This document shows, piece after piece, positions 40,586-51,111 of a DNA stretch of 64,000 bases. The first letter of the stretch is position 1, and each line of letters starts with the position of its first letter. Source of the DNA: Bacteroidota bacterium. GTDB taxonomy: Bacteria > Bacteroidota > Bacteroidia > Bacteroidales > JAAUTT01. The stretch spans positions 67,396 through 131,395 of the forward strand of contig JAJYAG010000001.1 in assembly GCA_021779665.1 (NCBI GenBank). Reading direction: 5' to 3'. The notes under the pieces are model-generated. The model was not told the DNA's origin. It worked only from the letters and a program-made list of their open reading frames with translations, and searched no databases. The position numbers were made by a program, and so were the translations under genes.

Positions 40586-42055
40586 CTAAAAATTAAACCA
40601 TGATTCGACAAAACTACGCATTTTACAAGGATCCTCGTCCTTGTGGGTGTATTCGTTTGTGTGAGGATTATATTGATAATCCTTACGCCACTCCCAATGA
40701 TTTTCGGCAAGCTGTTTTATTGCGTTCAGAATAAACCTTACCTCATCATCTGTCATAACCGGATGGATGGAGAATCTGAGCCAGCCAGGTTTGCAGGAGA
40801 GATCCCCCTGACTGATGCGCTCGGTAATTTCACTCGAGAGACTCTGGTCCACATGCAGCAGATAATGACCATAAGTTCCTGCACAGCTGCAACCACCGCG
40901 TACCTGAATCCCGAACCTGTCGTTTAGTATCCTGACAGCCAGATTGTAATGAAGATTATCTATATAAACAGAAAAGATGCCCAAACGTTCTTTGATGTTA
41001 CCTGCAAGAATATGCAGACCTTCAATTTTTTCAAGCCCCGGCCAGATAATATTTTTCAGTTCTTCTTCTCTTTCGAGCATTTTTTCAACGCCCATCTGCT
41101 CCTTCAGTTTAATACAAAGTGCAACTTTAATAGTGGGCAGAAAGGCAGGTGTACCGCCATCTTCACGTTTTTCAATATCTTCAACGTATTTATGACGACC
41201 CCATGGGTTTGTCCACTCAACTGTTCCACCTCCCGGACAATCGGGTATTTTATTTTTGTAAAGAGAGCTGTCGAATATCAGAATGCCAGTAGAACCTGGC
41301 CCGCCGAGAAACTTATGCGGTGAGAAATAAATGGCATCCAGCTTCTGAGCTGCTACCTGCGGATGCATGTCGATGTTGATATACGGTGCTGCACAGGCAA
41401 AATCGACAAAGCACAGGCCGCCAAAATTGTGCATTATTTCGGCAATCTGATGATATGGCGTTGCAATGCCTGTTACGTTGGAATAAGAAGTAACAGCGGC
41501 AATTTTGGTCTTTTTGTATGAAAATTGTTTCAGCAAAGTTTCCAATCCCTGCAAGTCTACCAATCCGTTATCGTCCGATGGTATAATCATCAGTTCGCCG
41601 ATCGTTTCAAGCCATGAAGTCTGATTGGAGTGATGCTCCATGTGCGTGACCAGAATCAGAGGCTTTTCTTCTTCTGAAAGCTGAACGAGATCTTTATACT
41701 TCTCGTGTATCCTGAAACCTAATATGCGTTGAAATTTATTTACAACGCCTGTCATACCTGAATTAGACGAGATAATCACATCCGATGAATGAGCGTTGAC
41801 ATGCCGTTTGATTGTTTTGAGAGCCAAATGATACGCGTGAGTCATACTGGAACCCGTTAGCGTGGTTTCGGTATGGGTATTACCCACGTAAGGACCGATA
41901 ATATCCGAAATTTGCTTTTCAATGGGAGCATAAAGTCGTCCGCTTGCTGTCCAGTCGGCATAAACAACTTTTTTTTTGCCATAAGGCGATTCGAAAAACA
42001 AATCGTTCCCAATGGTATTTTCACTATAGGTTTTGAAGTAGTTTTCCAGTGACAT
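40586..42055 (-). CDS. Class-V aminotransferase-fold PLP enzyme (cysteine desulfurase / selenocysteine lyase-like)
   Basis: 489 aa. The PLP-lysine context is YFSPHKFLGGPGSTGIL. Also contains NTHTETT and VTHMEHHSN. Confidence 0.8.
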   Translation of the reverse strand: MSLENYFKTYSENTIGNDLFFESPYGKKKVVYADWTASGRLYAPIEKQISDIIGPYVGNTHTETTLTGSSMTHAYHLALKTIKRHVNAHSSDVIISSNSGMTGVVNKFQRILGFRIHEKYKDLVQLSEEEKPLILVTHMEHHSNQTSWLETIGELMIIPSDDNGLVDLQGLETLLKQFSYKKTKIAAVTSYSNVTGIATPYHQIAEIMHNFGGLCFVDFACAAPYINIDMHPQVAAQKLDAIYFSPHKFLGGPGSTGILIFDSSLYKNKIPDCPGGGTVEWTNPWGRHKYVEDIEKREDGGTPAFLPTIKVALCIKLKEQMGVEKMLEREEELKNIIWPGLEKIEGLHILAGNIKERLGIFSVYIDNLHYNLAVRILNDRFGIQVRGGCSCAGTYGHYLLHVDQSLSSEITERISQGDLSCKPGWLRFSIHPVMTDDEVRFILNAIKQLAENHWEWRKDYQYNPHTNEYTHKDEDPCKMRSFVESWFNF

Positions 42056-42152
42056 CCCTGTTTCCTTTACATGTATAAATTTCGAACGTTATGTGCAAAA
42101 TAATGGATTTTATTCTGTAATTTACATGACAGTTTTCGATAAAACGGAAAAT

Positions 42153-42341
42153 ATGGAAATTGACGATGATAAAATTACCTGCAACTGCGGGAAAAGCTTT
42201 CCAAGAACCAGCGATTACAGGCATTGTACCAATTGCTTTGCCTGCACGGGATGCGAAATTTACTATTGTCCCTATTGCGACGAACGCATTGAAATTAAGC
42301 CGGTAAGGAAGATTGAGGATGGAAGGGAGAGAAATATTTAG
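42153..42341 (+). CDS. Small Cys-rich zinc-ribbon-like protein (62 aa from MEIDDD...)
   Basis: Eight Cys: CNC, CTNCFACTGC and CPYC. The start is uncertain (track GTG 42093; ATG 42126 or 42153). The stop codon is fused to repeat locus B. Confidence 0.35.
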   Translation: MEIDDDKITCNCGKSFPRTSDYRHCTNCFACTGCEIYYCPYCDERIEIKPVRKIEDGRERNI

Positions 42342-42467
42342 TCGACAGACTTCAGACCACAGCAAATACGAAATACAAAGTCGACGGTCGGACGGACCTC
42401 AGTCTACAGCAATTCAAAATACAAAAAGACGACAGACCAATGTTAATTACCTAGGTCTGTCGTCTTT
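42340..42467. repeat. GTCGAC-word element, locus B: about 2.5 tandem units plus a perfect 14-bp hairpin
   Basis: Unit 1 is agtcgacagacttcagaccacagcaaatacgaaatacaa. Unit 2 is agtcgacggtcggacggacctcagtctacagcaattcaaaatacaaaa. The hairpin is aaagacgacagacc (42425-42438) / ggtctgtcgtcttt (42454-42467). Confidence 0.8.
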
Positions 42468-42687: not shown

Positions 42688-42800
42688 AACGACAGCTAAT
42701 GCAGAATACAAGTCGATAATCGATAGTCTATCGACTAAACGCTATTGACCTGTATTCTTGTATTGGCTATTGACCATGGACTAAAAGCTATCGACTAACT
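42688..42800. repeat. GTCGAC-word element, locus C (ATCGAC/ATTGAC dialect), overlapping the 3' end of the A2M gene
   Basis: Begins aaacgacagctaatgcagaatacaag. The words ctatcgactaa and gctattgacc then occur in mirror order around tgtattcttgtattg. The last ctatcgactaa supplies the A2M stop codon and its final codons. Confidence 0.7.
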
Positions 42801-45800
42801 TTAACCACCTCTCCATCAATCCAATATTTCATCTCATTTGTATAATAAAGGTAAGTACAACTTGCGGGGGCCTGGTAAGTTCCGGCGATTTCGGATCGTA
42901 AGTCGAGCTTTATTTCTTTCTCTTCGCCTGGTGCCATTTCTCTGTAATACAGCACTAAAAGATTCTTATTCACTTCATAGAAATCTACTTTGCCTTTTTC
43001 CTGAATCTCTTTTAACTGCCAGGGCTGCAGACTTAATCCTGAGGGTATTCCGATGATTGCCATTGTCATAGGCAATCCATCATTGGTGATATTCCGAAGT
43101 TTAATGTTCATACGTACCGTTTCTCCAACCCTTGTATTATGAGTGGAAAGGGCTGTTTCTAAAAGTAACTTGCTATCAGGATGCGATGCCGGGGTGCTGC
43201 TGTTCCATGATGCATCGAACGAAAAGGGCATTGAAGCCTGTGTGCCTGAAAACCTGATTAGGACTTTATTGGTACCTTCCTGAAGATATTTTTCAAATCG
43301 TGCAAGAACAATCTTCCCCTTGTCACCCTTCCTGAAACTTTGTGAACCGGCATTGCTGCCATTGATAATAAGGCTGATTTCTCCATCGCTGTTAACCTGG
43401 GCCGACTGGAGTGAATAAGCCGTAAGGGCCTTTAAGGCAAGAATGGTGGCCTGTGTTGATCCAAAACCTCCATAAGAGCGGGAAGAAATAATAAAATTGA
43501 CTGATTTTTCAAGCTCACTCCAGCTATACAGGGTGGTTTTTAACGCTGCCATGATATACAAGGATGCTGTTTCAACCTGTAACGATTTTCCATAAGAATG
43601 AGTAAACGAAGGTTGAATAGTTAACTGATCCCAACTTTTGTTATCTATCTTTTTTTGAATCATTTCCAGCATCTTACTTCCATCATTGGTTTTCTTATAA
43701 TTAAAGGCTGCATTCGCCATCAAAGCCAGGCGGTAAGGATCCTCGCTCTTTAAAGCTTCCTGCTTTGCCAGTTCATATTCAGTATCAATTTTATCAATTC
43801 CGGCTTCCGATAAAGCATAAACCACATAGGCATTGGTAACCTGGTCGCTTGTGCCGCCAAAGCTATATTTCTGATAGTTATCGCCTTTGAAGTTGCCTTT
43901 CCCATCGCGGTGTTTCAGAATCCATTTCAGGGTTCTGTCCATCATCGCCTGGTCAACGTCATCGTAAACAGCTTTCATATCGGTAAATTCCATAAATCCA
44001 TAGGCAGTGAGGCCTAAATGTCCGGGCGCATGACCAAACCATTCAAAACCATTCTGGGAGGTTTCAAAGCTTTTTAAACGGTCATACCCTGTTTTGATAA
44101 GTTTGAGTGCCCTTTGCGAAACCATTGCCGTATCCATGCCTCTGGATTTCAGGTATTGTAAAACCATGATGTTTGGATAAGTGCTCGACGAAGTCTGTTC
44201 AAAACAACCATAAGGTTCCCTCAGAATCGATTCAATACCCGATAATAGATCGCTCAGAATGTCAGGATAAGCTGAAAACTGGGCTTTTAAGGAACCCGGA
44301 ATGGCCTTGCTGATTGTAAATGTGAAGTTCTTTTCCGTCTCCTTTGCCGACACCGAAAAAGATGCAGGAAAACCTTTGGGCTGGATATCAACCTCCTGAT
44401 TAAATGCATCGCTGTTTGTACCACCGTCGAAATTAATCCCAAGTTTTACTTTACCGGCCATATTTCTGACAAAGAATGGAACGGATAAATTACGGTCGGA
44501 AAATGGAGCTATTTCAACTGAGTCGGGTAAAATAGTCAAGGGATTAAGATTCTCAGGAACATAGTATTGCAACTTTCCTGTTAATGTTTTGGATGTATTA
44601 TTTTTAAGAATCAGAGGCATCACAACTGTATCGCCAAAGGAAACATAAGCAGGAAACTTCACAGCCATACTGAATGGCAGCTGGGTATAGAATTTCTTTT
44701 CGGTACGACCCACATCGCCTGTGTTTCCAATACCTTCGGCTACAGCCCTGAAGGTTGTAATTTCGTCGGATGTATAAAATTCCACTTCGGCACTACCGGC
44801 GTTATTGGTACTGATGTTGGGATTCCAGTAAATCGTCGATCTGAAATCGGTCCGTTCCTTAGGTGTTTCATTCTCTTTATAAACCGGATAATAAAACTCT
44901 TTGATGCCAGACAGCCTTCTAGGCGAAATGAGTAAGCCGGAATATCGTGGTTTGAAGCTTTTCTTTAACTGCTTGTAATACCCATTATTGGCCGAAGTTG
45001 TAATCAATATTACCCCATTTGCTGCTCTGCAACCGTAAATTGAAGTAGCGCTCGCATCTTTTAATACCGAAATGCTTGCGATATTCGACACGGGAATGTT
45101 ATGGAGGATTGATTTACTATCGGACAAGGAAGGATCGTAGACAACGCCGTCAACCACATACAAAGGTTCATTCACTGATAAAGCGTTTGTCCCCCGGATA
45201 GTAACCTGCGGCGATACACCTGGCTGACCCTGATCGTTGATAACATTTAACCCGGCAACACGTCCCTGTAATGCCTGGTTAACCATACCCGGCAAGGTTT
45301 GAATATTGCTTGCAGTTACTTTGGTAACTGAGCCTGTAAGATCGGCTTTTCTTTGTGTTCCGTAACCGATTACTACAATCTCGTCGAGGCTTTTCACATC
45401 TTCATCAAGTATCATGTCAGGCCCTTTGCCCATTTCGACTGTTTCGGTAACATAGGATGTAACTGATCTTTTTTTGCTGATTTCCCCGGTCTTTACCTTC
45501 ACAATTTCGGGCATCAGCGATTCTCCGCTTATTGAGGAGCCCAAGCCTGTGCCAGCCAATTCATTCAGATAATCAATTTCTATGTAAATATCAGATATAT
45601 CAATTTCGCTGCTCCGGGCCAACACCTGAATATGTGATGATGCATCAGCATTTTCGAACCTGAAACGACCCAGTTCAGTTGTGCTAACTTTTAAAATTCT
45701 TTTGCGGTTTTCCAATTCAATTACAACAACTTCCGCTTTTACAGGCTTTCCATCTCTTTTATCCTTAACAGTGCCACTAATACAGCCAATTCTTTCGGCG

Positions 45801-47443
45801 GGATAAAGTACATTGTAATTCATTTTCAGGACCTCATTCCAGTAATATCTGCGCCAACCCTGGGTTAATAAAAGGTAATTGAGGGCCTTTTCAGCTTTTG
45901 GTTCTTCAGGGTTGAAATAAAACTCAGGTTTCTCAACTTTCCCTTTGATTTCGGAGCCCAGCAACATCCACGATAGAATATTATGCTGCTTGTCATCGGC
46001 CATGGTCATAAGCTGATCTTTCACAACAGCCAGCGAAAGATTTGCAGCTACCGGAATACTGTCCTTATCGGTTGTACGAATGCTCAGCTTTACCTTCTGG
46101 CGCGGGTTATATTTTTCCTTATCGAACCTTAGAGATATGTTTAAACGCTTATTATAATTGAAGAACATCAGCCGCTCGCAACGAGGATTCCCCTGTCGGT
46201 CGAACAAAGTTGCAATAGCAGTACCAGTAGGAAATTTATCGGCCGAAAATTCTATTTCGTTGCTATTTCCGCCTGCATTTTCGGAATAAGTGAAATAAGT
46301 TCCGTTAGCTGACTGAACCGCAAAATGAACCCTTTCGCCCTGAGGCGCATGATATATAGCTTTATACCTGTTTTCGCCGGCAGGAACCACTCTTAGCGTG
46401 TACCCCCTGGGCATTACTTCGGGCAATTCGAACCTTTCTTTGATTTGAGGTTTCGTAATTACAGCAAAGTAATGCTTTCCGGGAACAGGAAACATTTCGA
46501 AAGCTCCCATTCCCTGGTGAAAGCTGCTGAATTCAAGAATTCTGTTATTGGTATTGTCGGTAATATATCCTTCTACTTCAGCAGGTTTACCAAATTCGTT
46601 TACAGCTTTAAATGCAATATTACCCGGAATATTAGCCACAAGGTATCCTCCTTCCGGAAAGAATTCAATATTGATTTTATTCAAAACAATGGGTATAGAG
46701 CGGGAAACAGCCTCTGTACTGCCTTCGTGCAATATTTTGGCATTGATAAGTCCGTCGCTGCTTTTCAGCGTTTCGGGGAGGATATACTGCAGCATCACTT
46801 TACCTTTATTATCGGTCTGAAGGTCAACCGTTTTTACCTTTTCCCCGGCAAGTGATATATCTGCTTTTACGTTTTTGAAAGTTAAAGGAACATTTTCGAG
46901 TGTTTCAACTTTCAGCTCAGCCTTCACAGTATCGCCCGGGGAATAGCTTTCTCTTTTAAAATCAATCTTTGCCAGCAACCGTGGATAAACCACTTTCTGA
47001 ATCTGAATTTCCTTTTCGAAGTAATAATCCACCCCAAAATTTTTCATCCAGGTGGTGTAAGCCTTTATTTTGTAGAGTCCGCCTGCATAAGAATCGTCGA
47101 TGGTGAAGCTGCCGGAACAAACTCCCTGAATCACCTGAAGTGTCAACGATTTATCAACATTGCTGCGGGGATTGATAAGCTCGATATAAACAACATCCGA
47201 TTGTCGGGATGGGAGATTGGTAGCTCCATCAGTCACAAAAGCCTTGAACCAGATATCTTCTCCGGGCTTGTACAGCGATTTATCTACATGCAGATACACC
47301 TTTTCAAAAGGCTTGTTTTTATAAAAGGAGCTCACAAAGTTCTTCAGAGCAGCAATAAAAGGATCTTCCGACTGGCTGAAATAAACAAAGCCAGAACAAA
47401 TAAGGGTTAATATCAAGGCTGTGGTTATAATTTTTGTTTTCAT
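42788..47443 (-). CDS. Alpha-2-macroglobulin-family thioester protein with an internal CarboxypepD_reg + TonB-dependent-receptor Plug cassette
   Basis: 1551 aa with a signal peptide (possible lipobox LTLIC). MG-type N-terminal domains (YLHVDKSLYKPGEDIWFKAFV; LLLTQGWRRYYW). Residues ~555-625 are CarboxypepD_reg-like (ISGTVKDKRDGKPVKAEVVVIE...GRFRFEN). Residues ~686-816 are SusC-type Plug motifs (LDEIVVIGYGTQRKADLTGSV, VTIRGTNAL, PLYVVDGVVYD, ISVLKDASATSIYGCRAANGVILITT). Then come an A2M block (FRSTIYWNPNISTNNAGSAEVEFYTSDEITTFRAVAEG), the thioester EPYGCFEQT (Cys1080) and a receptor-binding-type C-terminal domain. Confidence 0.85.
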   Translation of the reverse strand: MKTKIITTALILTLICSGFVYFSQSEDPFIAALKNFVSSFYKNKPFEKVYLHVDKSLYKPGEDIWFKAFVTDGATNLPSRQSDVVYIELINPRSNVDKSLTLQVIQGVCSGSFTIDDSYAGGLYKIKAYTTWMKNFGVDYYFEKEIQIQKVVYPRLLAKIDFKRESYSPGDTVKAELKVETLENVPLTFKNVKADISLAGEKVKTVDLQTDNKGKVMLQYILPETLKSSDGLINAKILHEGSTEAVSRSIPIVLNKINIEFFPEGGYLVANIPGNIAFKAVNEFGKPAEVEGYITDNTNNRILEFSSFHQGMGAFEMFPVPGKHYFAVITKPQIKERFELPEVMPRGYTLRVVPAGENRYKAIYHAPQGERVHFAVQSANGTYFTYSENAGGNSNEIEFSADKFPTGTAIATLFDRQGNPRCERLMFFNYNKRLNISLRFDKEKYNPRQKVKLSIRTTDKDSIPVAANLSLAVVKDQLMTMADDKQHNILSWMLLGSEIKGKVEKPEFYFNPEEPKAEKALNYLLLTQGWRRYYWNEVLKMNYNVLYPAERIGCISGTVKDKRDGKPVKAEVVVIELENRKRILKVSTTELGRFRFENADASSHIQVLARSSEIDISDIYIEIDYLNELAGTGLGSSISGESLMPEIVKVKTGEISKKRSVTSYVTETVEMGKGPDMILDEDVKSLDEIVVIGYGTQRKADLTGSVTKVTASNIQTLPGMVNQALQGRVAGLNVINDQGQPGVSPQVTIRGTNALSVNEPLYVVDGVVYDPSLSDSKSILHNIPVSNIASISVLKDASATSIYGCRAANGVILITTSANNGYYKQLKKSFKPRYSGLLISPRRLSGIKEFYYPVYKENETPKERTDFRSTIYWNPNISTNNAGSAEVEFYTSDEITTFRAVAEGIGNTGDVGRTEKKFYTQLPFSMAVKFPAYVSFGDTVVMPLILKNNTSKTLTGKLQYYVPENLNPLTILPDSVEIAPFSDRNLSVPFFVRNMAGKVKLGINFDGGTNSDAFNQEVDIQPKGFPASFSVSAKETEKNFTFTISKAIPGSLKAQFSAYPDILSDLLSGIESILREPYGCFEQTSSSTYPNIMVLQYLKSRGMDTAMVSQRALKLIKTGYDRLKSFETSQNGFEWFGHAPGHLGLTAYGFMEFTDMKAVYDDVDQAMMDRTLKWILKHRDGKGNFKGDNYQKYSFGGTSDQVTNAYVVYALSEAGIDKIDTEYELAKQEALKSEDPYRLALMANAAFNYKKTNDGSKMLEMIQKKIDNKSWDQLTIQPSFTHSYGKSLQVETASLYIMAALKTTLYSWSELEKSVNFIISSRSYGGFGSTQATILALKALTAYSLQSAQVNSDGEISLIINGSNAGSQSFRKGDKGKIVLARFEKYLQEGTNKVLIRFSGTQASMPFSFDASWNSSTPASHPDSKLLLETALSTHNTRVGETVRMNIKLRNITNDGLPMTMAIIGIPSGLSLQPWQLKEIQEKGKVDFYEVNKNLLVLYYREMAPGEEKEIKLDLRSEIAGTYQAPASCTYLYYTNEMKYWIDGEVVKVSR

Positions 47444-47575
47444 GGTTGCAGGTATTAATGTTTTTTAAAAGATGTGGGCGGAATACGAGTCCCCCAAAAA
47501 GATTGTATTTTATTTCAGACATTGTCTGTTCATCTTTACATTGATTTTTGACTCTTTGGTTCTTTGATATGCTGC

Positions 47576-50449
47576 TTAGAGACTTACCTTTATCGAAATT
47601 CCAACACTACTTACCGCCGGCATATTGAAAAGATCCAGTCCACCAGTATTCGATTTCTTCCAGAGGGTTATATTCGGATCGGAGCCGCTATAGCTGGTAA
47701 TGAGTAACGGATTGCGGATGAAAACCGAGATTTCAGGTTTAAAATCACGCATTCTGTAAAATTTATAACTTACTGATATCTCACGGATCCTGAACCAGGA
47801 GGCATTTTCAACCGCATCTTCTGCAACACCGGTCATGCCGTAGCGATACCAGCGATTCTGCTGCAGGGATCGGGTGGGATTGGCAAAATCAACCGGTGTA
47901 GTATTTACAGTGCCATCCTCCTTTACTCCCGGAAAAATATATTCCAGTACCTTCCGCCCTTCAACAGTCTTTTCCGACAAACCCAGGTACGATAAAACAT
48001 TACCCGTGCCGTTCCAAACCTGTCCCCCGTGCCTGTATTCCATTAAGATACTTGTAGTAAAGCTGCCCAAAAAAATTGTCGGTTCGAAACCTATTGTAAA
48101 ATCGGGTTGAGGATTGGCAATCACTTTCAGGTTATCATCCACAAGCGGATAACCATCTTCTCCGATAATCAATTTCCCATTATCATCTCTTCTCCAGGAA
48201 GTTCCAACCACCACACCTGCAGGATATCCTTTTATCAGCGAGGTATGCACATCGGCATAACCGCCTAAGGGAATCTCACGGTTGTTTCCATAAATATTGG
48301 TAACTACAGATTTATAGCTGTCGAAAATAAAACGAAACTGAGAGGACCTGTTGTTGTACACGAAGTTCTGGTAGATTAGAATTTCTGCTTCTATTCCGCG
48401 CGTTCTGGTGGACGCCAGATTCTTCACCAGCACTTCCCCATTTTCCAAAACCGGGAACATTGCATTGGTGGTTTTGTGCTCATAAAAATCAATATCGAGC
48501 GAAATCTTATTATTCAAAAAACCAAATTCTCCACCTGCATCTTTCTTTTCAACCTTTTCGGGAGTAAGACCCAGGTTGGGAATTATTTCGTGCTCAAAAA
48601 GGGTATTGTAAAAATCGGATGAGCGGATGTTCTGAAAGTTATATTTACCAAAAGAACTGTTCATGGCTGCAAAAGAATAATTATATCCCCAGTTGGCTTT
48701 CAGCTTTATTCGTTCAACAAAGCCATGTATTCTGAAGATATCATCAATATTGAAGCCCAATGCATATGTCGGAGCATAAAGCATTTTGTTTCCGTGATAG
48801 TGATTATTTCCACTGAAGTTGTGTGTCATTTTAAGCAATATCCCTTTTCGGAAAGTCAGATTTGAATTCCAGTTTATACTATGTTCTTCGCGGGAAAGAC
48901 TATAGTTTGTTTTTGTAAGTATTTCATCAGACAAAACTTCATCTCTGCGCGCCAATTCTGAATTCACACTGTAATATTCGTACCTTAGCGAAGAGCTTAA
49001 ATCAGCATATCTGAAATATTTGTTCAGGTTAATGCCTGTGGCGGATAAAAAAGACTCCAGCGAACCATTACGGAAAGTATTTGCTGTTTCGTCCATGCCA
49101 ACAGGCACAGATAAAAACCCGGTGTAAACTTTATTTTTTTGGTTTTGATATCTGAAGTCGGTAAAAACTGAAAACTGGCCGGACAGTTTGTATTCAAGAT
49201 TTAACACGCTGTTGATGGATTGCTGGTTCTCCTTATCCTGCATATTATGAAGCAACCAGTAAGGGTGGTTAACTTTACCCGCTGCATAGCTCCTTTGTGT
49301 CCCATTCTCCAGCTGATATGTTTCGGAGGAGTTATATGCATCTCTGGCTTTTTTACCTCCGGTTATATCAAAACTAGGTGGTGATGTTAATATGGAAGCT
49401 ATTACCAGGGTGCTGTTAGGAGAACCGTCGAGGTAGTTGCTTTTTAAATTATCGATGGTAAGTTGTCCTCCAATTTTGAACCTGCCATATACGCGCTTTA
49501 ATTTCAAATCGACAATATTCCCATTACTTTTTTGTCCGGCTAAGATACCCTTGTTTAACTGGTTGCTGAGCGCTATCGAATATTCTTTGCGCTCCGTTTT
49601 AAGAAAAATTTTCAGACTGTTGATATAAGTAAAGCCATTGCAAAATGCTTTTGACGGATCGTAACTCCGGGCCGGATTTCCGTTTCCGGTATTTTTGGGT
49701 ACCAGGCGGCCGTTGGAATCATAATCCCAGCTACTTCCATCAAATTCGAAGTTTTGAAGATTGGGTCCCCAGCTTAGTATTTCGCCGGTTTCGGGCGATT
49801 GCCACTGCGAGGTTCCATTAACCGGCCTTCCCTGTGCAAAACTGCTCTGTAATTTTGGCAACCGGGTATGGTGTTCTGTTGAAACCGAGGTAAAATAAGA
49901 AACATGCGGAATCCGGATGTATTCATCCCTGACCATATTGATCCGTGCCAGATCTTTGCCAAAATCGATACTTCCAATCTTGTTAACTACCATGTCATGG
50001 TCGTGCAACCAGTTATAATCAGGATTTATTACAGAAAAGGAAGGCGTTGAGGAGGTAAACACTGCTCTTCCTTCTTCAGCAGGTAATGTGTCAGTATATT
50101 CCGGGTAAGAAACCGGTACATAACTTCTCTCAGGCTGTGGTTCACCGGAAGTTATGTTCTGACTTTGCCCCCCGGGTTCTGAGTTTTTAACCGTAACGAG
50201 CATTTCTTTGGTGCTAAAACCTATATAAGAGAATACCAGTGTGGATCCCAAAGGGGCATTAATGCTGTAGGTTCCGTTAATATCGGTTACCACACCGGTG
50301 GTGGTTCCTTTAATATTTATGCTAACTCCTATTAATGGCTCCCCGGAACTATCTTTCATGGTACCTCTAATCAAACGCATTTCCTGCGAAAAGGCCATTC
50401 TTAAAGAAAAAAGGAACAGCAGTGTTAAAATTATTTTATAAGGCTTCAT
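47576..50449 (-). CDS. SusC/RagA-like TonB-dependent outer-membrane barrel lacking a recognisable Plug domain
   Basis: Started at the ATG at 50449 (MKPYKIILTLLFLFSLRMAFSQE); the track's TTG at 50524 is rejected. A CarboxypepD_reg block is present (IRGTMKDSSGEPLIGVSINIKGTTTGVVTDINGTYSINAPLGSTLVFSYIGF). About 90 aa of Pro/Ser/Glu-rich sequence follow, without the plug motifs. Then comes a SusC-type barrel ending ...ITSYSGSDPNI...NMPAVSSVGISIKVSL. No susD-like gene follows. Confidence 0.85.
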   Translation of the reverse strand: MKPYKIILTLLFLFSLRMAFSQEMRLIRGTMKDSSGEPLIGVSINIKGTTTGVVTDINGTYSINAPLGSTLVFSYIGFSTKEMLVTVKNSEPGGQSQNITSGEPQPERSYVPVSYPEYTDTLPAEEGRAVFTSSTPSFSVINPDYNWLHDHDMVVNKIGSIDFGKDLARINMVRDEYIRIPHVSYFTSVSTEHHTRLPKLQSSFAQGRPVNGTSQWQSPETGEILSWGPNLQNFEFDGSSWDYDSNGRLVPKNTGNGNPARSYDPSKAFCNGFTYINSLKIFLKTERKEYSIALSNQLNKGILAGQKSNGNIVDLKLKRVYGRFKIGGQLTIDNLKSNYLDGSPNSTLVIASILTSPPSFDITGGKKARDAYNSSETYQLENGTQRSYAAGKVNHPYWLLHNMQDKENQQSINSVLNLEYKLSGQFSVFTDFRYQNQKNKVYTGFLSVPVGMDETANTFRNGSLESFLSATGINLNKYFRYADLSSSLRYEYYSVNSELARRDEVLSDEILTKTNYSLSREEHSINWNSNLTFRKGILLKMTHNFSGNNHYHGNKMLYAPTYALGFNIDDIFRIHGFVERIKLKANWGYNYSFAAMNSSFGKYNFQNIRSSDFYNTLFEHEIIPNLGLTPEKVEKKDAGGEFGFLNNKISLDIDFYEHKTTNAMFPVLENGEVLVKNLASTRTRGIEAEILIYQNFVYNNRSSQFRFIFDSYKSVVTNIYGNNREIPLGGYADVHTSLIKGYPAGVVVGTSWRRDDNGKLIIGEDGYPLVDDNLKVIANPQPDFTIGFEPTIFLGSFTTSILMEYRHGGQVWNGTGNVLSYLGLSEKTVEGRKVLEYIFPGVKEDGTVNTTPVDFANPTRSLQQNRWYRYGMTGVAEDAVENASWFRIREISVSYKFYRMRDFKPEISVFIRNPLLITSYSGSDPNITLWKKSNTGGLDLFNMPAVSSVGISIKVSL

Positions 50450-50601
50450 GGTTAAAATTTTTGGTTCACACTTAGGATGAAGCTCAAAAATTTGTCCCCT
50501 AAAAAATGAATAAAAAAAGTTCAATTCAGCCGCAAGAAATTGTAACTTTCGTTGTCAAACATTCAATTTACTTCCATAATTAACTTCTAAACTATCTAAA
50601 C

Positions 50602-51111
50602 ATGAAAAGTAATTTTTTAAAGCCAACCACCTTGATTTTTGTAAGTCTTCTGTTTTTTACAGCTTTTACAGTTTCAGCCCAGAAGCCAAGCTTTGGAGGA
50701 ACCTGGAATCTGAATCAGGAAAAAAGTCAGTTGGGCGAAGGTCCGGGCAGACGCGCTGCTGCCAAAATTGTTATCAACGAAATTGAAAGCAGCATGATAG
50801 TCGAACGTACTTCTACTCGTCAATCGGGCGAAACCATGACCACAAAAGAAATTTATAACCTTACCGGAACTGAGACTGATAACTCCACCGAAAACAGGAA
50901 GAAAAAATCAGTAGCCTCCTGGTCGGCCGACAGCAAGGAACTCACCATTAAATCGACCACCACATTTGAACGCGATGGCAACAGCATGGAAATGAAATCG
51001 ACCGAGGTTTATAAAATAAGCGACGATAAAAAAACGTTAACAATAGATAACACGATGAGCTCGCAGCGGGGCGATTTTAAAACCACACTGGTTTACGACC
51101 TCGCTCAATAA
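50602..51111 (+). CDS. Small secreted beta-rich protein (lipocalin-like?), paralogue of 4196..4711
   Basis: 169 aa. Signal peptide ends ...FTVSAQKP, followed by FGGTW. Shares blocks with 4196..4711. Divergent from the barrel gene across a 152-bp gap. Confidence 0.5.
   Translation: MKSNFLKPTTLIFVSLLFFTAFTVSAQKPSFGGTWNLNQEKSQLGEGPGRRAAAKIVINEIESSMIVERTSTRQSGETMTTKEIYNLTGTETDNSTENRKKKSVASWSADSKELTIKSTTTFERDGNSMEMKSTEVYKISDDKKTLTIDNTMSSQRGDFKTTLVYDLAQ

Follow-up and report, generated by a model that had tools for sequence, protein, structure and literature searches.

We describe here two adjacent genes in a 64,000-nucleotide stretch of Bacteroidota DNA (hereafter the window: positions 67,396–131,395 of contig JAJYAG010000001.1, assembly GCA_021779665.1; Bacteroidota bacterium, Bacteroidales; JAAUTT01), one encoding a SusC-like outer-membrane β-barrel without a plug and the other a thioester α2-macroglobulin (A2M) that carries a TonB box and a SusC-type plug. 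Domain composition, sequence conservation and gene neighborhoods together suggest that the two products probably form a natural two-chain TonB-dependent transporter (TBDT), in which the plug would be donated in trans by a periplasmic A2M held beneath the barrel. To our knowledge, all TBDTs studied so far consist of one chain that includes both the barrel and a covalently attached plug; a system that places the plug on a separate protein, and that is natural, ancient and phylum-wide, would represent a new architecture. A first-pass annotation, made from the sequence of the window alone, had already proposed a system of two polypeptides, with the plug of a dedicated barrel provided by the A2M, and this prediction is well supported by the comparative genomic evidence presented below.

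Division of SusC-type transporter domains between two genes

The upstream gene (47576..50449, minus strand) encodes a protein of 957 amino acids counted from the start MKPYK, although the open reading frame (ORF) extends past this start to a TTG at 50524. As the first-pass annotation had recognized, the protein combines a signal peptide (aa 1–22, MKPYKIILTLLFLFSLRMAFSQ; 50384..50449), with which homologues begin alike, a CarboxypepD_reg block and a SusC/RagA-type barrel. The N-terminal extension is a CarbopepD_reg domain (aa 27–91; 50177..50371), detected as CarbopepD_reg_2 (PF13715, E 1.3e-15), the sole Pfam match in the protein, and matched in the PDB by the N-terminal domains of SusC proteins (8aa4, 9hfj). 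The β-barrel (aa 181–957; 47579..49909) is recognized by the NCBIfam SusC/RagA model TIGR04056, which aligns this entire region with model positions 211–981 (E 5e-57); it gives no Pfam match to PF00593, and its sequence is highly diverged. The barrel assignment is borne out by an AlphaFold2 (AF2) model built on an alignment of 33 plug-less homologues (mean predicted local distance difference test score, pLDDT, 87.2), in which DSSP assigns 22 long strands starting at aa 182 and which in Foldseek searches of the PDB best matches SusC BT2264 (template modeling score 0.68), followed by BT1763 and RagA.

The N-terminal domain and the barrel are joined, at the site of the missing TonB box and plug, by a segment (aa 92–180; 49910..50176) that is 89 aa long in the window. 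The first-pass annotation had held that the ~120 aa normally present at this site are absent; this is correct insofar as the TonB box and plug are missing, but the place is filled by this linker. Across 70 orthologues the linker is nearly always present (median 77 aa). Its mean identity of 13%, well under the 43% of the N-terminal domain and the 28% of the barrel, indicates a variable linker rather than a cryptic plug. A cryptic plug in this interval was considered and ruled out: there is neither a hidden Markov model (HMM) match nor a plug-like fold at residues ~90–180, and aa 94–134 are modeled with pLDDT below 50. The Pfam Plug model gives no match in the barrel protein even at E ≤ 1, and the TonB box and the SusC/RagA signature (TIGR04057) are likewise absent from it.

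The downstream gene (42788..47443, minus strand) encodes a protein of 1551 aa identified through its ORF, Pfam and NCBIfam matches, homologues and PDB matches. In agreement with the first-pass annotation, it holds the motifs that the barrel lacks, preceded by its own CarboxypepD_reg domain and enclosed between N-terminal macroglobulin (MG) domains and a complete A2M, thioester and receptor-binding-type module. The plug (aa 699–817; 44993..45349) includes the IRG and PLYVVDG motifs and the SusC signature and is detected by Pfam (Plug, aa 699–811, E 4e-16), by TIGR04056 (aa 666–817, model positions 56–204), by TIGR04057 (59.8 bits against a cutoff of 46.2) and in the PDB, where this region matches residues 83–246 of SusC BT1763 (5t3r_D, E 7e-30). 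It is preceded by the TonB box LDEIVVIGYG (aa 686–695; 45359..45388).

The two proteins divide the SusC/RagA family model into complementary, abutting portions, with positions 56–204 in the A2M and 211–981 in the barrel. The partial scores of 181.9 and 193.9 bits add up to 375.8, above the family cutoff of 368.25 that neither protein reaches alone; within the pair, the plug, the TonB box and the SusC signature are confined to the A2M. Going by these matches, it is the gene pair, and not either protein alone, that carries the full SusC/RagA feature set. Furthermore, the best complete-SusC relative in the match lists of both parts is the same protein pair, P0147/P0150, which shows 40.5% identity to the A2M plug and 30% identity to the plug-less barrel over all 777 aa. 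Within P0147 itself, aa 335 marks the end of the plug and aa 343 the start of the barrel match; the P0147 locus is an ordinary FecR-SusC-SusD arrangement. The simplest history suggested by these sequences is that the TonB box and plug were transferred from one SusC gene of the P0147/P0150 subfamily to a neighboring A2M gene.

The remainder of the downstream protein shows domains typical of the A2M superfamily, namely MG domains, a CUB domain, a thioester domain (TED) with a CxEQ motif and a C-terminal MG8/receptor-binding-type domain. An N-terminal hydrophobic signal sequence (aa 1–24; 47372..47443) is followed by the N-terminal MG domains (aa 25–475; 46019..47371), which include a Pfam MG2 match (aa 48–130), a weak A2M_BRD match (aa 392–474) and β-sandwiches in the AF2 model (aa 352–475). 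Beyond the plug, the A2M (MG7) and CUB region (aa 870–1056; 44276..44836; Pfam A2M, aa 870–958; TEP1 in the PDB) leads into the TED (aa 1057–1343; 43415..44275; Pfam E 2e-31) with its thioester motif GCFEQ (aa 1079–1083; 44195–44209), and the protein ends with the C-terminal half of CUB and the MG8/receptor-binding-type domain (aa 1344–1551; 42791..43414; Pfam A2M_recep, aa 1459–1537; AF2). From aa 863 onward the protein aligns with TEP1 from residue 604 (E 7e-28), and CD109 and human A2M match as well; the E values for these three, ~1e-27 to 1e-28, compare with 6e-8 for ECAM and ~5e-7 for the Salmonella A2M. By sequence, the A2M body (MG7-CUB-TED) is thus far nearer to metazoan than to proteobacterial A2Ms, a finding relevant to the long-standing debate over horizontal transfer linking metazoan and bacterial A2Ms.

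The cassette that contains the plug comprises ~390 aa and fills the interval between PF07703, which ends at about aa 474, and PF00207, which starts at aa 870; in human A2M, the bait region occupies this interval. In the A2M superfamily, the two MG6 halves are separated by a short bait (or ANA/LNK) region sensitive to proteases. It opens with a conserved helical segment (aa 478–551; 45791..46012; ADDKQHNILS...LLTQGWRR) of 50% mean identity, modeled as low-confidence helices. There follows the internal CarboxypepD_reg domain, akin to the N-terminal extension (NTE) of SusC (aa 554–625; 45569..45784), for which the match to PF13620 (aa 555–608, E 5e-5) is under the Pfam cutoff; PF13620 is precomputed on many homologues, and the AF2 model shows a confident β-sandwich at aa 554–623 (pLDDT ~80–88). 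A hypervariable, predicted-disordered tether (aa 626–685; 45389..45568) then leads to the TonB box, and a second flexible tether with a conserved segment (aa 818–869; 44837..44992) leads from the plug into MG7. This segment contains the conserved motif FY.P.Y...eRtDFR.TiYWNP, and the region may be equivalent to the α'NT region of A2Ms. The N-terminal tether is 47–85 aa long across the 70 orthologues with 16% identity, and the C-terminal one, ~30 aa of low pLDDT in the window protein, shows 30% identity. Given this variability and the predicted disorder, the tethers of the plug would be natural candidates for the protease bait.

The AF2 model of the A2M, which covers aa 352–1551 and was built from 44 sequences (mean pLDDT 73), is consistent with this anatomy. 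MG7, CUB, TED and MG8 are well modeled; the plug (aa 706–816), modeled without the barrel, is moderately confident; and a 78-residue stretch that includes the TonB box (aa 627–704) has pLDDT below 30. A second low-confidence stretch (aa 819–849) falls below 50 at aa 819–829 and 843–849. The model matches CD109, A2ML1, TEP1, SaA2M and ECAM, with TMq values of 0.41–0.45 to native A2M-family structures against 0.20–0.25 to activated ones.

Conservation and distribution of the gene pair

Searches with the A2M protein yielded 1452 homologues, the best 120 of which are nearly all of ~1540–1560 aa with MG2, Plug, A2M and TED domains, and all 116 full-length homologues contain the thioester motif GCFEQ. 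When one genome per species was scanned, at least 596 species proved to encode a relative. Within Bacteroidota, the system concerns several hundred species or more, from marine Flavobacteriales through Chitinophagales and Cytophagales of soil to anaerobic Bacteroidales, and understanding the pair would bear on the defense and permeability of the envelope in a phylum of ecological dominance. Hosts such as Flavobacterium, Chitinophaga, Aquimarina and Winogradskyella can be cultured, which opens the system to direct tests.

For neighborhood analysis, 80 loci from Bacteroidales, Cytophagales, Flavobacteriales and Chitinophagales were kept, of which the 78 with upstream DNA are informative. A barrel homologue lies directly upstream on the same strand at 72 of these and directly downstream at one, giving 73 of 78 with an adjacent barrel. 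In the orthologous loci the gap between the two genes is usually 0–10 nt (median ~4), compared with 132 bp in the window. The division of domains recurs throughout: among the 80 loci a plug match was obtained in none of the barrel ORFs and in 79 of the A2M ORFs. The association also holds in the reverse direction, in that three of three distant plug-less barrels (25–27% identity to that of the window) have an A2M-Plug gene 4–5 nt downstream. A chance pairing can be excluded, since more than 70 species share the pair. The survey thus confirmed, for both genes, the expectation of the first-pass annotation that plug-bearing A2Ms and plug-less barrels go together without SusD. Its test for a plug within the barrel protein likewise spoke for its reading. 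All-against-all clustering of the ORFs of the 80 loci revealed no third conserved gene, only the barrel and the A2M; a further partner, such as SusD, TonB, a protease or PbpC, was ruled out on this basis.

The first-pass annotation had pointed to misassembly as a possible source of the arrangement. An independent assembly of a near-identical strain (GCA_027352335.1) shows the same gene order and layout with 2 base differences in 9.2 kb, and this agreement, together with the recurrence of the pair in four orders, excludes misassembly or a recent rearrangement. In that assembly, GAA is replaced by TAA at codon 903 of the A2M gene (44737 in the window; L087:8707), and gene calling there splits the A2M into ORFs of 902 and 626 aa. 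A protein ending at this stop would retain everything from the MG domains to the TonB box and plug but not the TED; the stop could represent a sequencing error, population heterogeneity or natural inactivation.

Several individual loci depart from the common layout. In a Cytophagia metagenome-assembled genome (MAG), the order is inverted (L020:5902-13707), with the A2M-Plug gene first and the barrel 195 nt downstream; that the barrel still adjoins suggests that the linkage survives rearrangement. The single A2M without a regular plug match among the 80 (L060:2874-7406) has a degenerate plug, with a partial Pfam Plug match (E 6e-4) and no adjacent barrel, and in another (L045:3089-7618) ~86 aa are left in the plug interval and the barrel is still upstream; these two may be decay intermediates. 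Four further loci (L052, L056, L067 and L079) have an intact plug and no adjacent barrel, and the neighbors in these loci encode MlaE, OmpA-family and T9SS-tail (type IX secretion system) proteins, a prolyl oligopeptidase and a DUF7133 protein. A typical pair labeled as belonging to a MAG of Limnohabitans, a betaproteobacterium (L058, JASGCW010000030.1), is probably a mis-binned contig and not a true occurrence outside Bacteroidota. Finally, in a Leeuwenhoekiella MAG, a second A2M-like ORF of 909 aa (L043:10629-13358), covering query aa 45–913, lies directly downstream of the A2M-Plug gene, with no detectable plug.

Both halves of the putative split transporter show conservation that suggests a continuing role of the plug in a barrel. 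In the 70 orthologues, the TonB box (L.EVVV.GYG) retains its leucine in 66, its glutamate in 65 and the VVV residues in 61–64; the arginine of the plug IRG motif (R750) is kept in 69 and G810 in all 70. In the barrel, N677 is kept in 64, G685 in 68 and an acidic residue (E/D) at position 687 in 60 of the 70. The motif N677..G685-x-E687 is one known from BtuB and other TBDTs, and in TBDT structures a plug arginine and a barrel glutamate in these motifs form the 'lock' salt bridges; by analogy, they would pair across the two chains of the present system. The conservation pattern indicates purifying selection on the plug core motifs, on the TonB box and on the barrel motif. Moreover, pairwise distances for the barrel and the A2M body are strongly correlated (r 0.68–0.81), from which it follows that the two genes are co-inherited.

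Predicted mechanism and alternative explanations

We propose that the first gene provides a 22-strand barrel that lacks a TonB box and plug and would possess its own periplasmic N-terminal domain, and the second a thioester A2M that would be exported to the periplasm, with an NTE-like domain, the TonB box and the plug hung on two flexible tethers. The plug would enter the barrel lumen from the periplasmic side, as it does in known TBDTs, and close the pore; docking would place the ~170-kDa A2M body directly below the outer membrane; and the conserved TonB box would couple the assembly to TonB. The plug of solved TBDTs has its two ends in the periplasm, and because the plug of the A2M hangs on two tethers, it could enter the barrel from below with the A2M body staying in the periplasm. 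The plug and barrel of FhuA, exported as separate polypeptides, reportedly reassemble in vivo. If the predicted docking is correct, the pair would offer a natural experiment on the entry and exit of plugs and the gating of barrels, an open question since the first TBDT structures.

In view of the intact thioester and the native-like MG7-CUB-TED-MG8 portion, the A2M is most likely still a protease-triggered covalent trap, for which one of the disordered tethers could serve as bait. The bait region of A2M tolerates full replacement and lengthening, and the trigger is a discontinuity in the bait, after which its C-terminal end retracts from the central channel (PMC9352918); given this tolerance and this kind of trigger, even a large cassette is compatible with a native, triggerable A2M. 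The likely role of such an assembly would be envelope defense or gatekeeping at a dedicated outer-membrane portal, directed at proteases that have gained entry to the periplasm. Of all parts of the proposal, this biological role is the least secure, the candidates being defense of the periplasm at the portal and coupling of the state of the pore to the firing of the trap.

With regard to the latter, we tentatively raise the possibility that the location of the plug in the bait site of the A2M mechanically links pore gating with trap firing, which would make the pair an unrecognized envelope machine of Bacteroidota. Proteolysis of a tether, or the pull of TonB on the plug, would then trigger the conformational change of the A2M and, simultaneously, alter the state of the 22-strand outer-membrane pore. 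Such a surveillance, capture or portal device would have no counterpart among nutrient transporters or known bacterial A2Ms.

Several observations weigh against a plug docked in the barrel beneath the outer membrane. Five of the 78 A2M-Plug loci have no adjacent barrel. A second putative lock pair is weaker than the first, R806 being kept in 42 of the 70 orthologues and position 641 being acidic in ~28. The partial Mantel correlation between plug and barrel, 0.17 (p 0.005), is positive but weak and gives no evidence of contact. The signal-peptidase site of the A2M is poorly conserved across homologues (e.g., ...VKELEDPF, ...QLTTEDPF). Furthermore, plug-deleted SusC barrels can act as diffusion channels, according to a preprint (bioRxiv 10.1101/2025.11.13.688124), so an unplugged barrel is not necessarily lethal. 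As a separate observation, the hydrophobic N-terminus of the A2M might be an uncleaved inner-membrane anchor, in which case the protein would span the periplasm.

Some of these points would also be expected if the two genes were merely co-regulated, with the plug outside the barrel, the barrel acting as an independent diffusion channel and the cassette binding TonB or another periplasmic partner. The same preprint reports that an engineered plug deletion of BACOVA_04505 is a functional channel, small sugars still passing through the plug-deleted SusC, and that natural lid-less, often plug-less SusC-like transporters ('Type S') exist (bioRxiv 10.1101/2025.11.13.688124), and there is no SusD at the pair, in keeping with this alternative, as are the five loci without an adjacent barrel and the weak plug-barrel correlation. 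We nevertheless regard it as unlikely, since the split is exactly complementary and both halves derive from the same SusC subfamily; adjacency is near-obligate, with ~4-nt spacing, in four orders and in both search directions; and the plug core and the barrel motif are under purifying selection, which a barrel-free plug would have no obvious reason to maintain. Moreover, no carbohydrate-active enzyme (CAZyme), polysaccharide utilization locus (PUL) or peptidase context surrounds the pair, either among its neighbors in the window or in the ORF clustering of the 80 loci.

A different role for the barrel, as a dedicated translocon or anchor through which some or all of the A2M would reach the cell surface and trap extracellular proteases there, with the plug as a stalk in the pore, appears to us quite improbable. 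Ecologically, a protease trap exposed at the surface would be sensible, both long flexible tethers could span the pore, and a TBDT (Oar) is reported to be required for the secretion of a protease (PMC6434023). However, the halves that flank the plug (~650 and ~730 aa) consist of folded MG, CUB and TED domains; no T9SS C-terminal tail was found by Pfam in the A2M; and a lipobox is not conserved, 88 of the 116 full-length homologues having no cysteine in the signal region and the LICSG of the window protein not being a conserved lipobox. The TonB_C-bearing sister A2Ms discussed below also point to periplasmic docking. The periplasmic position of both plug ends in solved TBDTs argues in the same direction, and we know of no precedent for the passage of such folded domains through a 22-strand barrel. 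The first-pass annotation had entertained both an A2M tethered under the barrel and one exported through it; of the two, tethering fits TBDT topology better, and export fits it worse.

The chance that the arrangement is an artifact (misassembled, recently rearranged, or a susC pseudogene in decay beside an A2M gene unrelated to it) is practically negligible: the premature stop at codon 903 in the near-identical public assembly speaks for it, whereas both ORFs are intact in the window, the architecture is the same in more than 70 species of four orders, the independent assembly has the same layout, and both proteins are under strong purifying selection.

Relationship to known transporters and A2M proteins

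With SusC/RagA transporters (BT2264, BT1763 and RagA), the pair shares the barrel fold, the CarbopepD_reg extension, the TonB box, the plug motifs and the SusC signature, and differs from them in that the plug and TonB box reside on a polypeptide separate from the barrel. SusCD and RagAB pairs include a susD or ragB gene for the lid, whereas there is none among the neighbors of the pair in the window, and the clustering of the 80 loci revealed no conserved one. The closest laboratory parallel is the artificially split FhuA, in which the plug is likewise said to enter an empty barrel in trans; in contrast to that construct, the split described here is natural, ancient and phylum-wide, and the plug resides within another large protein. 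The 'Type S' SusC-like transporters resemble the barrel of the pair in having no plug or SusD of their own; in the passages of the preprint considered here, they belong to glycan-utilization clusters, are proposed to take up small sugars, and no partner that would supply a plug is mentioned (bioRxiv 10.1101/2025.11.13.688124), whereas the next gene in the window supplies both TonB box and plug.

Among bacterial A2Ms, ECAM/YfhM and the Salmonella A2M share with the window protein the multi-MG architecture, the TED with CxEQ, the presumed periplasmic location and the native-state fold. ECAM/YfhM has a lipobox and is linked to pbpC; the window A2M has neither a conserved lipobox nor pbpC and carries the ~390-aa cassette in the bait interval. 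MagD/YfaS is, likewise, an A2M-family envelope protein within a multi-protein assembly, but is thioester-less and encoded in the mag operon, in contrast to the window A2M with its invariant thioester, outer-membrane barrel partner and lack of mag genes. Should our proposal be correct, the pair would add a third context for bacterial A2Ms, besides ECAM-PbpC and the Mag complex, in which the trap is tied to the outer membrane and to TonB energy.

A further variant was found in the same clade. Five sister A2Ms of ~1605–1650 aa (P0076, P0082, P0088, P0108 and P0120), with 40–49% identity and an intact TED, have a TonB_C domain (PF03544) in place of Plug at the same insertion site; in Pfam scans it occupies aa 815–892 of P0076 and 792–867 of P0108, after two CarboxypepD_reg domains. 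At the two sister loci examined (L081:8001-12887 and L082:8001-12887), there is no adjacent barrel. Rather than filling a barrel, these proteins presumably grasp the TonB boxes of ordinary TBDTs, and the presence of TonB_C at the same position suggests that the site hosts modules that dock onto TonB-dependent receptors from the periplasm. If gating and trapping are indeed mechanically linked, the TonB_C sisters would represent a second way of docking based on the same principle. No description of these sister A2Ms was found.

The architecture of a TBDT split in trans and fused into an A2M is visible in databases and is annotated only generically: the A2M homologues bear in their source records only the names 'TonB-dependent receptor plug domain-containing protein' or 'MG2 domain-containing protein'. 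In NCBIfam release 20, no model reaches its cutoff on either protein. Consistent with the first-pass annotation, which knew of no described system of this kind, none emerged from the literature or family-library searches; as most subscription journals were outside the scope of the literature search, its failure to turn up an account of the pair is no proof. A known anti-phage defense system was ruled out for the pair, there being no PADLOC-DB 2.0 match for the barrel, the A2M or the two small flanking ORFs.

Gene neighborhood and lineage-specific variants

The barrel and A2M genes are arranged head to tail on the minus strand, separated by a 132-bp spacer (47444..47575). The first-pass annotation had described this gap as free of a hairpin or T-run; a terminator scan of the coding strand indeed found no terminator-like site in the spacer, the single 5-bp palindrome (47516–47528) having no T-run directly behind it. 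A promoter scan is uninformative here, as Bacteroidota promoters are outside its coverage. Downstream of the pair are unrelated housekeeping genes for a class-V aminotransferase, a DNA-alkylation repair protein, an MFS/POT transporter and an M24 peptidase; upstream, on the opposite strand, are a 169-aa ORF of unknown function and an inorganic pyrophosphatase gene. As had been stated in the first-pass annotation, no susD, pbpC or mag genes are present among the neighbors of the pair in the window.

Two small ORFs flank the pair, the 169-aa one (50602–51111, plus strand) and one of 113 aa (42024–42365, minus strand); neither has a Pfam match, and other species do not keep them beside the pair. 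Gene calling in the independent assembly of the near-identical strain likewise yields the 169-aa ORF.

The barrels of Chitinophagales form a distinct variant (L035, L037, L039, L041, L044, L046, L049, L051, L053, L064, L066, L075, L077 and L080). These proteins, of ~820–840 aa when mature, show homology that starts near aa 90; no Pfam match is on record for the short barrel homologues P0165, P0167 (853 aa) and P0169. The variable linker seems to be kept in them, and the N-terminal CarbopepD_reg domain is apparently the missing part. If so, the N-terminal extension of the barrel itself would be dispensable in one order.

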